Made by a program: the position numbers and the translations under genes
Notes under the pieces: generated by a model
Databases searched by the model: none
Told to the model about the DNA's origin: nothing
Seen by the model: only the letters and a program-made list of their open reading frames with translations
Origin: a candidate division FCPU426 bacterium
GTDB taxonomy: Bacteria > Oederibacteriota > Muellerivitia > Muellerivitales > Muellerivitaceae
DNA: 64,000 bases
Direction of reading: 5' to 3'
Assembly (NCBI GenBank): GCA_963796105.1
Contig: CAWCKJ010000002.1
Span: 256,001 to 320,000, forward strand
Shown: in pieces, positions 1,821 through 8,254 of the stretch
Layout of the letters: each line of letters starts with the position of its first letter
How positions within the stretch are numbered: position 1 is the stretch's first letter

Positions 1821-2721
1821 ATTCGCGAATCGCGCAAGTTGCGCGAATGGAAAGTTGCGCGATTCAACCTTGCGCGATTCGGCTTGGAAGTTGCGCGAAT
1901 CCCAAAAAAAGTTGCGCGATTCGATCCCATGGGTGTCATTTGTCCCGCCGCGGGACAAATCTATGGTCATAAGCTAATAAACACGGCAATTATGTCCAGC
2001 CGCTGGACAAAACTTCCTCGGAGATATGGGCTCTGCCCAGCGGCTGGGCAGGAGAGGGGAAATCCAGAGAATACCAGAGGCTAACCCGGGAACATTCGGA
2101 CTTAAGCCGGGAACAGCGGCAGATAACCCGGGAACAGGGTAGATAACCCGCCCACATTGCCGGGAACATCCGTCGGAAAGGGAGATAACCCGCCCACATT
2201 TCCGCCGGTCGGGAGGATAAACCGCCCACATTGCCGGGAACATGTGTCGGCAGGGAGGATAACCCGCCCACATTTCCGCCGACACCTACCGGAGTTGAGG
2301 ATAAACCGCCCACATTTTCGTAGGTAACCCGGGATAACCTGGTGACAGGCTGGGATAACCTGGTGACACCTACTGGCATTTTCGTCGGCAACCTAGGATA
2401 CCCCTATGCTGAGCCTACAAGGCGAAGCATGCGACTCGATTATTTTTATCGCCCTTGGACGTAAGTCCATCCAACGGGTGGGTGTGTTGGCGCCAAGATA
2501 ATGGCGCCAATAACCTGGTGACAGGAGCCCTGTCCCCATAGCGGAGTTATTTCACCAATTAATTGTGATTTTAGCTGGGTCTCTGGGTCCCTGTGGTGGA
2601 TATTGGTTTTCCGCCCACATTACTGGCGGTATTTTGCCCTAACTCAGGGCAAGACTGGAAGCTAGATGTTGCGCGAATCGGCTGAAAAGTTGCGCGATTC
2701 GTATAGAAGGTTGCGCGATTC
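1821..2721. repeat. Composite, helically phased direct-repeat and palindrome array (iteron- or centromere-like)
   Basis: (G)TTGCGCGA(A/T)T at 1838, 1854, 1869, 1890, 1911, 2668, 2689, 2710. GATAA(C/A)CCGCCCACATT at 2142, 2184, 2216, 2258, 2300. CCGGGAACA at 2086, 2107, 2128, 2160, 2234. GATAACCTGGTGACA at 2333, 2354 (partial ~2510). TGYCC-N7-GGRCA at 1941, 1993, 2034, 2635. Confidence 0.9.
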
Positions 2722-2740
2722 AAAATACCCGTGATAAAAT
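2711..2740 (+). promoter_or_regulatory. Putative sigma-70 promoter overlapping the last repeat of the array
   Basis: TTGCGC (2711-2716), 18 bp spacer, extended -10 TGaTAAAAT (2732-2740). ATG at 2750 has no Shine-Dalgarno. Confidence 0.45.
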
Positions 2741-2749
2741 CCCATTTAT

Positions 2750-3538
2750 ATGGTGCCTAAATTTATAAACGCCTTGTTTTCAAGCTTTTTATCGGTACTC
2801 CTGTGGATTGCCAGCCTTTACCACGGGGGTCTGATTGTTTTAGCCATCCTCTGTTCAGCCAAACTCCCACCGGCCTACGATGTACCCTTGGGCTGGACCC
2901 AATACCTGGATTCTAATGGCGCCAGCTCATTTTCCTTTTGGGTTTATTTTTCCTCCTTAACCGCCTACCTCATCTGGGAGACTGTCCATTCGGACTTCAA
3001 AAAACCCAAGGGAATTGAGCTGTTGTTCCAAAAAGCGGGAGCAGGGGAGAACGCCGTGGTGGGGTGGTTCCTATTAGACCTGTTCGCACGTTACAACCAT
3101 CATCATTTGTTTTACAGCCTTATGCCCGACTACCTGGATAAGACCCTGGCGGTTTGTTTCCTGCTTTGGTTGGACCAAAAGATCGTAAACTCCATTTTAC
3201 GAAACCGGCAAGCCATCGTTGTTGCCAATCCAGTTCGGATTCCCAAAGCTCCTGTTGAAACTATCCCTTTACCCTCTAAAGATGTCATGGAAGAAAAAAA
3301 CCAACTAAAGTTGATTGTCCCGGTAAAGCAAGAATTACCCAATGATCAATCACTGGCTGAATTGGAAGAAAAAATTTTGAAATACATCCGCCGCCATGAA
3401 AAGGCAGGCACTGCGGAATTGGTAAAAGCCCTTAGAGTTCCTCCGAGGACGGTGAATTACTGGCAAAAGAAACTGCTCTCGAATGGGCGTTTGGAGAGAG
3501 TGGGGAAGGGCAAAGCGGCGGTTTACAGACTGAAATAG
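2750..3538 (+). CDS. Membrane protein with C-terminal winged helix-turn-helix domain
   Basis: Three to four hydrophobic segments in aa 1-145, then a Pro/Lys/Glu linker, then EEKILKYIRRHEKAGTAELVKALRVPPRTVNYWQKKLLSNGRLERVGKGKAAVYRL, typical of DeoR/Fic-associated wHTH. Confidence 0.8.
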   Translation: MVPKFINALFSSFLSVLLWIASLYHGGLIVLAILCSAKLPPAYDVPLGWTQYLDSNGASSFSFWVYFSSLTAYLIWETVHSDFKKPKGIELLFQKAGAGENAVVGWFLLDLFARYNHHHLFYSLMPDYLDKTLAVCFLLWLDQKIVNSILRNRQAIVVANPVRIPKAPVETIPLPSKDVMEEKNQLKLIVPVKQELPNDQSLAELEEKILKYIRRHEKAGTAELVKALRVPPRTVNYWQKKLLSNGRLERVGKGKAAVYRLK

Positions 3539-3821
3539 GATCATAGAGTAAAAGTTAAGGCGAAAAAAACACCATTAATTGGTAATAGGGCTATTCAAAA
3601 AGTCCCTATTCTTTTACGCCGGGGCGTTAAAATAAAGGTTAATGAGCGACGGTTCGAGTCCAGTCCGGGGACCCGTCGCGGACAAATAAAGGCAACTTTT
3701 TGACAATTAAGCGTGGGTTTGTATCCAACCCAGGGAGCCATTTACACTGTTTTAGAAATAATCATATATATATAATCACTGGAATTACACAAGCTTTAAT
3801 GGGGAAGAGAAGGAATGGGTA

Positions 3822-6610: not shown

Positions 6611-8254
6611 CCTGAATTTTGCACCGAGTTTACCGATTCCGTGGCCAGATCGGCCTGAATCGGGACCCGACAGTGGCCATTTTCATCAGAAGTGAACTTA
6701 TGTGCAAAGAATTTTTTGCACCAAGCCACTTCTAGGCCGCCCTGGGTCTTTCCAATCGTTTTCGATCAAGGTATTTGAGGAAACCCAATAGGCCCGCTGT
6801 CCTATCATCATGGATTGAATACCTCACCACATCCCGATGGCCGTGATACTGGATTCGGGCGGCTACAAAGAGCATCTTCAAACGTGCGATCCGAAGGGTA
6901 TGGTCCGGCATGGTGATCTGTTCCTTCTCCTGTGGCTTCTTTCCCGGTCGCTTTTCTTTTCCACAATGGCCCACCATTAGTTTCATCCACCTCCAGAGGT
7001 TGTAAGCCAGCATCACGATCTGGAAAAAAGCATGGTGGCTTTGGAAACTCTTAGAGGGAATTGCTAATAACCCCTCCCGTTGCGCCTCACCAATCAGGTT
7101 TTCCACATCCGCGCGCAGGTCGTATTCCTCAACCACCCGATGGGGTGCTCCCAGACAGTTGGTCGCGAAGATTCGGTAGACATATCCTTCCATTTCAGGA
7201 AGGCTCAATTGTTTCTCCCGCGCTTTTTCATCCAGCGTCCTCATCGCCACAAACCGGACTGGTTGTTGCCAGCCTATGGGTTGATGGACACATTCGTTGT
7301 ATTCGTGTTCTCCATGGCGGTACCAACCCTTTTTCGTGAAAGGCGGGTCATGCCGCTTGTTCCCGAAGATGAAAGAAAACCCTTCTTTTTCACAGGCTTT
7401 CACGCTTTCCCAGCCGATCATTTCACCGTCACCGCGCACCAGAATCGTCCGGACACAGGACGGCAAGAGTCGCCGGAATTGTCTAATTTGGCGGGCCACT
7501 TCCTCAGAACTAAGGGTGGTTCCGCGTCTTTGGGTTCCGCACAAATATTCCCGGGTTTCCTGGAGAAAACACAGAATGGGCCTCAGTCCCTTCTTGCCCC
7601 GGTGCTTGGGGTTGTATCCTTTTCGGCTTCCCTCGATATTTCCGTAGACCGTTGCGGTGGTGGTATCGATGTTGATCTCCACCTTCTTGGGGGCATATTT
7701 CACCTGTCCCCAAACCTTGGCCCGTAACGCCCCACTCAGATTCAGCAACGATGCCGACTGCCCGATCCCCAGCGACCTCAGGTATCTCCAAAAAGTTGTC
7801 ACTACCGGCAACAAGGGAACCCGCAGTAAACCGCACAGCATGACCTCACCCCGCAGGTAGGCAAAATGGCCAAGTCTTTGGAACCCGATGAAAAGAAGCA
7901 TTAGGATGCCGCTTACCATCCGGTAGTGGCCCAAATTCGGAAGGCGTTTAGGTGCGGCATAGTGTTTTTTGAATTCCCGCTCAAAATCAAGAAGGTCGAA
8001 CATCTTCGCCAATGCCAACAATCCGCCAAAAGCTGTTAGGCGGTCTTCGCAAATACCTACGGGAGTATTGGCCGTAATCTTGGGCGCGATTCTCCCGTTT
8101 CGATTGGCTTTTTTCTGGACTTGCGGGTTTGATTTCTGAGGCGTATCTTGACGTTTCACCATCTGGGGGACCCTCTTTTAGGATGAGTTGGCTTCGCAAC
8201 CCTTATCCTATAATGGTTTCCTAGATGGTTTTTTTATTAGGCGCAAAATTCAGG
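6611..8254 (-). mobile_element. IS1380-family insertion sequence (1644 bp)
   Basis: Terminal inverted repeats CCTGAATTTTGCAC (6611) and CCTGAATTTTGCGC (reverse complement of 8241-8254); 5 bp target duplication TATTA at 6606-6610 and 8255-8259. Confidence 0.93.
6732..8162 (-). CDS. IS1380-family DDE transposase
   Basis: LTAFGGL N-terminal motif, INIDTT...YGNIEG..KGYNP, LVRGDG, Y..RADVENLIGE; lies between the inverted repeats. Confidence 0.92.
   Translation of the reverse strand: MVKRQDTPQKSNPQVQKKANRNGRIAPKITANTPVGICEDRLTAFGGLLALAKMFDLLDFEREFKKHYAAPKRLPNLGHYRMVSGILMLLFIGFQRLGHFAYLRGEVMLCGLLRVPLLPVVTTFWRYLRSLGIGQSASLLNLSGALRAKVWGQVKYAPKKVEINIDTTTATVYGNIEGSRKGYNPKHRGKKGLRPILCFLQETREYLCGTQRRGTTLSSEEVARQIRQFRRLLPSCVRTILVRGDGEMIGWESVKACEKEGFSFIFGNKRHDPPFTKKGWYRHGEHEYNECVHQPIGWQQPVRFVAMRTLDEKAREKQLSLPEMEGYVYRIFATNCLGAPHRVVEEYDLRADVENLIGEAQREGLLAIPSKSFQSHHAFFQIVMLAYNLWRWMKLMVGHCGKEKRPGKKPQEKEQITMPDHTLRIARLKMLFVAARIQYHGHRDVVRYSIHDDRTAGLLGFLKYLDRKRLERPRAA

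Follow-up and report, generated by a model that had tools for sequence, protein, structure and literature searches.

Introduction

Regulators of the ToxR/CadC type have an N-terminal winged helix, one transmembrane (TM) segment and a periplasmic sensor. Noc connects its sites on DNA with the membrane, and TraB joins a membrane anchor to a C-terminal winged helix with helix-determined specificity. According to the text available for the work on ParB and Noc, specificity is shifted by a few residues in and after the recognition helix (PMC7383237), and the accessible accounts of Streptomyces TraB describe the reading of 8-bp clt/TRS repeats on its own element and in scattered chromosomal copies (PMC4170104, PMC12857230). 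The available text on R388 StbA/stbS and on pSK1 Par presents each as a single NTPase-free protein that is both repressor and centromere binder (bioRxiv 10.1101/2022.04.29.490116). Subirana and Messeguer described bacterial satellites whose length is constant, at 20-21 and 52 nt, with several families per genome, variable sequence and a span of two helical turns, for which they proposed a polymerising protein of unknown identity; no protein is named in the text available (PMC8161180). The 'predicted global regulator binding sites' of Geobacter metallireducens are, in the part of that source at hand, dispersed short tandem sites, some with an IS at a fixed distance (PMC2700814).

We analysed a 64,000-nucleotide stretch of bacterial DNA (the window) in which a repeat array precedes the gene of a predicted membrane-anchored winged-helix protein, together with a second protein family (family II) found at other arrays. 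Like StbA and pSK1 Par in their available descriptions, these proteins would be lone NTPase-free binders with direct repeats in their own promoters (9-bp repeats in two sets for StbA), a likeness of sequence layout only; unlike them, they have predicted membrane anchors, are chromosomal, occur as several paralogues with different motifs and have no known plasmid. No similarity to StbA was found among the listed fold or Pfam matches. Family II has a putative DNA-binding fold of the Noc and ParB type, on matches that are weak singly, but it lacks the ParB_N CTPase, carries a predicted TM helix and an outer domain, and has its sites as phased direct arrays before its own gene; the ParB_N CTPase and adjacent ParA that define ParABS are absent here. 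The proposed reading of scattered repeats resembles that of clt by TraB; unlike TraB with its FtsK motor, the 262-aa window protein has no motor domain. ToxR/CadC proteins likewise join a DNA-binding domain to the membrane, and family II shares their order of DNA-binding, TM and outer domains. The window protein, however, has the reverse order (N-terminal helices, C-terminal winged helix), family II uses a putative ParB-type HTH, and long phased arrays are atypical of ToxR/CadC. The Geobacter sites differ in being 5-9-bp tandem units, with no cognate protein named in the text available (PMC2700814), and the satellites of Subirana and Messeguer, as far as that text goes, differ in that candidate readers are linked to the arrays here. 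Literature searches for a description of either protein family, whose coverage mostly excluded subscription journals, returned nothing relevant. The new element is likely to be the candidate readers linked to constant-period arrays; the arrays themselves are of an already known kind.

Results

The window array is a patchwork

An earlier note on this DNA had described some 900 bp as a single helically phased cis element coupled to the adjacent gene. The four repeat families that it listed, their spacings and a 74-bp duplication are all present in the window (Table 1). The repeats of motif A, TTGCGCGA(A/T)T, are real, but they start one base later than it had placed them, base 1869 being C and not G. 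Direct copies start at 1839, 1855, 1870, 1891, 1912, 2669, 2690 and 2711 (start-to-start spacings 16, 15, 21 and 21 on the left, 21 and 21 on the right), and an inverted copy lies at 1828-1837. All nine matches in the window lie between 1828 and 2720, against 0.33 expected, and none of 100 shuffles reached this count. Motif B occurs at 2086, 2107 and 2128, with extra copies at 2160 and 2234; the motif C core at 2149, 2191, 2223, 2265 and 2307 (spacings 42, 32, 42 and 42), with an extra copy at 2612; and motif D has a third copy at 2510-2523 in addition to those at 2333 and 2354. Not in the earlier list are the inverted motif A copy and, in Table 1, the palindromes, the dispersed unit and the tRNA-Asn 3'-end copy.

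Table 1. Features of the window array and the gene that follows it
Feature	Position in window	Strand	Remark
Left motif A cluster, one inverted and five direct copies	1821..1921	.	
Three palindromes, type TGTCC..GGACA	1938..2050	.	
Motif B array, CCGGGAACA, 21 bp	2082..2136	+	
Motif C array, 42/32 bp, 74-bp duplication	2142..2316	+	
Motif D pair	2333..2368	+	
Dispersed REP-like unit	about 2555..2616	.	common to up to 14 other loci
Promoter-proximal motif A triad, 21 bp	2669..2720	+	third site over predicted -35
Predicted extended -10, TGnTAAAAT	2732..2740	+	18 bp before ATG, without Shine-Dalgarno
Protein of 262 aa with four long helices (predicted), a disordered linker and a winged helix at its C-terminus	2750..3538	+	
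Degenerate tRNA-Asn 3'-end copy	3651..3674	+	true tRNA-Asn on another contig

The left motif A cluster and the palindromes form a block that recurs at four other places in the genome, none of them with the window gene. Arrays of motifs B, C and D occur at many further sites in the genome, and these motifs are also found upstream of family II genes: B before L104 in G001, C before G000 C4:1196527 and G001 L075, and D before G000 C4:724386. The window array is thus a patchwork of a genome-wide array family and not a one-off. Only motif A belongs to the adjacent gene; the idea of one cis element of about 900 bp was not supported, and B, C and D go instead with arrays elsewhere and with a second protein family.

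Other parts of the window are also repetitive. The stretch at 1066-1460 belongs to a further family of dispersed intergenic repeats, present at about 50 genome loci, which includes a 75-76 bp twin-hairpin unit; tandem arrays of this unit occur elsewhere in the genome. The ORF at 1468-1734 encodes an 88-aa cysteine-rich product with five genome paralogues (39-56% identity) and no Pfam or NCBIfam match. An Rfam search gave one chance match only, and a generic promoter and terminator scan stayed at chance level.

Phased repeats of 21-22 bp resemble iterons, and phased direct repeats of 17-22 bp, an iteron-like feature, are present here. A plasmid-type iteron origin was nevertheless rejected: no Rep is encoded nearby, and the genome holds 62 arrays, not a single origin. 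A parS site or centromere was rejected because no ParA is encoded nearby, because dnaA and parB lie on contig C4 and not on the window contig, and again because of the 62 arrays; a pattern search found no canonical parS. Decayed coding sequence for 7-aa repeats, the outcome that the earlier note had itself set against its proposal, does not fit either, since spacings of 16, 22, 32, 43 and 74 would disrupt a reading frame, and a multiple of 3 is found for only 118 of the 273 spacings in family II. We regard all three explanations as extremely improbable. That neither Rep nor ParA stands beside the array agrees with the earlier observation, the neighbours of the array gene being a sigma-70 factor, the 88-aa ORF and a methyltransferase; the suggested GC-skew plot revealed no skew switch at the window. 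Of the five motif A clusters, two (G000:C4:851565 and C4:1592703) are close to dnaA (about 8 kb) and parB (13 kb), a nearness that was noticed post hoc and may be due to chance.

The window protein and its promoter

The ORF at 2750..3538 is real by homology: in a full-library search 30 representatives passed a threshold of E 0.001, and several of these are full length, while a word-index protein search matched only the protein itself. The gene is single copy in the genome. The AlphaFold model (mean pLDDT 85.5, 15-row alignment, low-confidence linker) contains four long helices, which partly supports the three to four TM helices first suggested; however, only the first of them is strongly hydrophobic in the window protein, the best 19-residue hydropathies being 2.17, 1.01, 0.49 and 1.41. 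The homologues are more hydrophobic, and membrane anchoring of the window protein is predicted. The C-terminal winged helix was confirmed by fold comparison, for which residues 197-262 only were used: residues 200-262 matched a Zalpha domain at Z 12.2, and ArsR, MarR and AspA folds were also matched. A DIP2311-like/Fic C-terminal type family was matched below cut-off in 8 of 15 members. An NCBIfam search of the protein gave no match, and atlas searches gave generic HTH leads below 0.8 only, or none.

The promoter of the gene is predicted to be of a conserved leaderless type. An extended -10 is found at the same place in L029, L046 and L025, and its distance from the ATG is 18 bp in four of five leaderless-type loci and 20 bp in the fifth; the generic promoter scan does not call it at the window gene. 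The last motif A site covers the predicted -35 position. This placement favours an alternative in which the proteins are plain membrane-bound regulators of the ToxR/CadC kind, the few promoter sites are their autoregulatory operators, the long arrays are neutral or selfish products of slippage and IS-linked rearrangement, and tethering is a side effect. We consider that alternative possible but rather unlikely, on evidence given with the arrays below.

In winged-helix homologues the motif follows the recognition helix

When 99 genomes of the phylum were searched with a family profile, 14 had matches. The best 9-mer (one mismatch allowed) within 350 bp upstream was counted for the ten close loci that kept the N-terminus, five of them from one genus; winged-helix-only remnants were left out. 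It reached at least four copies at 8 of the 10 loci, against 30 of 398 control genes, of which 10 reached five copies. The counts were 3 (window), 9, 7, 12, 7, 14, 2, 6, 7 and 4, so that the window locus and L005 (2 copies) both lie inside the control range in this 350-bp test. The test skipped low-complexity words and therefore undercounts the ATTGGAAGA family, whose counts come from separate inspection. An upstream cluster was found at one of three distant homologues. The remnants L006, L033 and L024 have no cluster, and three G001 remnants lie 3' of arrays. A metagenome scan gave six loci, none of them a full-length member, L033 being the winged-helix remnant without a cluster.

Six helix types were found, each with its own motif, and the motifs share a TGG/TGC...A frame. 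Helix RRxVIRxLNKL goes with TGGCAC(A/G)AT, RxVNYxQxKL with T(G/T)CGCGA(A/T)T, RKAVNRLQEKL with TG(G/A)GACAT, RS(T/S)LAYNL with ATTGGAAGA, RSTLTYNL with AATTGGCAG and RTRERYTSKL with CTGGCGGAT. The TG(G/A)GACAT sites, which may be compared with the TGTCC..GGACA palindromes of the window, belong to a G002 homologue. The window protein and L152 of G002 have similar motifs, with 38/58 identical residues in the winged helix and 38/115 in the membrane part, whereas L004 is closer to the window protein in the membrane part (51/137) and has a different motif. At the window, the winged helix is encoded 600 bp from the array and the membrane part next to it, so it is the farther domain that the motif follows. 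Of the 31 family genomes, 7 contain paired TGGCACRAT, and six of these hold the matching helix type as a gene or remnant, while none of the other 24 holds it; in the exception, G016 (89% complete), no gene was found. Paired motif A occurs in one of the 31, the source genome of the window.

The comparison of homologues that the earlier note had proposed thus came out in its favour, in that upstream motif clusters are present and their sequence follows the recognition helix. The conserved phasing of about 10.5 bp that it expected among them was not found: the homologues have perfect 17-bp tandems, with three proximal sites often 19-21 bp apart, and helical phasing is not a constant of the winged-helix family. 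The perfect tandems resemble recent slippage, a point for plain regulators with neutral arrays.

Further winged-helix paralogues were seen at G000:C4:1120187, where AATTGGCAG sites are interleaved in the upstream array, and at C7:92768 and L048, both of whose proteins end in a hydrophobic segment. In the window, 2488-2511 holds three overlapping TGGCGCCA palindromic sites with the same TGG...A frame.

Family II: a putative ParB-type domain and a predicted TM helix

Six of the genome's arrays immediately precede genes that are paralogues within a single unannotated family, family II, in which a putative ParB-type DNA-binding domain without CTPase is followed by one predicted TM helix. The best fold matches of the N-terminal 140 residues were the DNA-binding domains of Noc, ParB, Spo0J and KorB, each weak when taken singly (Foldseek E 0.07, TM 0.57; Z 7.7, 101 aligned, rmsd 3.4), and this domain had no sequence match among solved structures. 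The family profile retrieves ParB_N+HTH_ParB proteins, with ParB_N in 10 of 11 weaker relatives; ParB_N was absent from all 12 family II proteins scanned and from the window protein. A hydrophobic segment of 1.8 or more was present in 18 of 19 proteins tested. Many family II proteins end in a PDZ-like part (DegP-like match, E 0.004), an outer end that speaks for plain regulators. No ParA was seen beside the family II genes of G000, whose neighbours were judged by eye; toxin-antitoxin-like pairs lie 3' of two family II genes.

We examined 53 loci, of which 40 remained after removal of 2 duplicates and 11 ParB_N-type loci. An 8-mer was repeated at least 5 times in the 900 bp upstream of 36 of the 40, compared with 66 of 2474 controls, and at least four motif copies lay within 450 bp at 38 of the 40, the exceptions being L096 and L106. 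The 11 ParB_N-type loci showed no 21/43-bp array, in an upstream window that included about 330 bp of coding DNA. Spacings were mostly 21, 22, 43, 20 and 42 bp. The period that fits best is 10.7 bp: of 273 spacings of at least 15 bp, 262 fall within 1.5 bp of a multiple of it. In many genera the arrays hold between 5 and 27 copies, whose heads are conserved and whose tails are free, at a spacing of two turns; they exceed the needs of repression, and no target genes are conserved 3' of the modules, both of which argue against plain regulators.

Motif C goes with helix LSDSQITD (two genomes), motif D with IHRGSVIT and motif B with KNRTKTTF (G001); no intact family II gene for motif B was found in the window's own genome. 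With overall similarity removed, the motif-protein partial correlation over 38 loci was 0.29 for the HTH (0/2000 permutations), 0.21 for the recognition helix (0/2000) and 0.055 for 80 post-HTH columns (337/2000), in permutations that ignore kinship. The N-terminal columns also correlate with the motif (0.185), and in an initial test, which kept the motif frame fixed, the peak came immediately ahead of the recognition helix. In family II proteins it is the HTH that is encoded closest to the array, so linkage alone could yield the correlation. On a poorly resolved tree of post-HTH columns the motif changes 26 times, against 19 on the HTH tree, with motif classes set by hand and only one independent pair on starred branches.

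This linkage caveat and the weak tree test leave some room for the motifs to be read by other factors, or by none, and merely to hitch-hike with adjacent genes, and the orphan state of most arrays points the same way. In the winged-helix family, however, the motif follows the distant domain and not the adjacent one, and two unrelated folds share the same layout; we hold hitch-hiking to be very improbable.

Arrays and IS elements across the genome

The genome has 62 non-coding arrays, 27.9 kb in total, with periods of 20-22, 41-44 or 50-54 bp; coding repeats, CRISPRs and IS terminal repeats are excluded from this count. By our own count, 54 of the 62 have no reader-type gene beside them. The arrays of the genome comprise several non-coding families with a period of 20-22 or 52 and variable sequence, and they are members of the constant-length bacterial satellites as these are characterised in the available text of PMC8161180.

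An array lies within 400 bp of 14 of 18 IS21-type copies, 5 of 10 IS3-type, 1 of 30 IS1595-type and 0 of 21 IS1380-type copies, and of 4.7% of random intergenic positions; these family labels are our own assumption. The IS1380-type transposase at 6732-8162 of the window is one of the 21 copies, none of them near an array. At G000:C6:86482-86862 the first 35 or so codons of a family II gene are joined to a motif B array, which shows that arrays recombine into genes. Both this fusion and the closeness of IS21-type copies count in favour of plain regulators whose arrays were dispersed through slippage and rearrangements linked to IS elements. In G000, arrays are repeatedly flanked by members of a family of seven related genes, each about 400 aa long (for example at C2:116535 and C4:1596373), which presumably encode an AAA ATPase with DUF4143.

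Mobility and tRNA-Asn copies

Flanks differ at every winged-helix and family II locus examined, and the surroundings of the modules change from genome to genome. The genes that come after the orthologue of the upstream sigma gene in the same genus are unrelated, which leaves no clean empty site. A scan of genome contigs gave no match; nor did scans of viral contigs and plasmids, collections that may hold few elements of this phylum, and hence there is no known replicon for a tether to serve.

Five of the ten close loci carry a mimic of the tRNA-Asn 3' end directly 3' of the gene; for four homologous genes the distance is 11-80 bp. This raises the possibility that an element, integrative or transposable, makes use of the tRNA-Asn 3' end, with the clusters as its termini or arm sites and the winged-helix protein as its directionality or accessory factor. 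A large serine recombinase that reads through another tRNA-Asn copy beside arrays fits this picture, as does the A/E block, present at five places and once adjoining a tRNA-Asn 3' copy. Against it, none of the TM-winged-helix loci was found to have a recombinase nearby; in G022 and G072, which carry both gene and mimic, the recombinase query used gave no match; the G002 copies lack the mimic; the window has one mimic only, with tRNA-Asn on another contig; and family II would be left unexplained. We judge such an element improbable.

The recombinase follows an XRE-type HTH protein with a hydrophobic C-terminus at L070 (G000:C4:258532-260818), where its reading frame runs across an antisense tRNA-Asn 3' copy and on into arrays; a 95% identical copy in G001 is likewise followed by arrays. 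Cassette-like tRNA-Asn 3' copies stand after unrelated genes and before short ORFs at L051, L058, L060, L061 and G000:C4:1259000-1259578, and degenerate inverted copies of the 3' end lie just downstream of the tRNA itself.

Discussion

In our reading, the array and its anchored reader form a cassette for anchoring or partition that is of mobile origin and works with a single protein, and its surplus sites are now satellites; we give this statement as a whole a probability of about one half. Its parts differ in strength. An own array before the gene, together with a motif that changes with the reading helix, makes it likely that the proteins bind the arrays; from sequence, direct binding of each protein to its motif is probable, and repression by each of its own promoter is somewhat less so. 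That membrane tethering is the selected function of such an NTPase-free cassette of mobile origin is put forward tentatively, as slightly less than an even chance.

In the proposed mechanism, the winged-helix protein would bind motif A, repress its own promoter and hold the bound DNA at the membrane. Its winged-helix domain (residues 195-262) would prefer TTGCGCGA(A/T)T to TGGCACAAT, and motifs B, C and D are likely sites of the putative ParB-type HTH family encoded elsewhere. Many sites on the same face would let several anchored molecules bind together. Paralogues would have diverged in specificity and so avoid cross-binding, as incompatibility groups do, and surplus arrays would spread as satellites. 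The sequence shows orphan arrays dispersed over about sixty intergenic positions, to which IS21-type elements are attracted. Many copies of the reader genes are truncated or frameshifted, a point against this reading.

A wider form of this reading is doubtful: that the lineage anchors its chromosome or mobile DNA at dozens of satellite arrays through diversifying TM readers with a recognition code, a motor-free tethering to multiple addresses that was built twice, with a ParB domain and with a winged helix, and that also steers IS21 insertion.

With these two families, the constant-period satellite DNA of bacteria would gain its first candidate readers. Both are testable, and their roughly 50 natural protein-site pairs are enough for binding tests and for a recognition code. 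If the tether reading is true, they would provide a direct NTPase-free link between DNA and membrane with many orthogonal addresses, which would bear on membrane-aided segregation and might offer orthogonal tools for positioning DNA.
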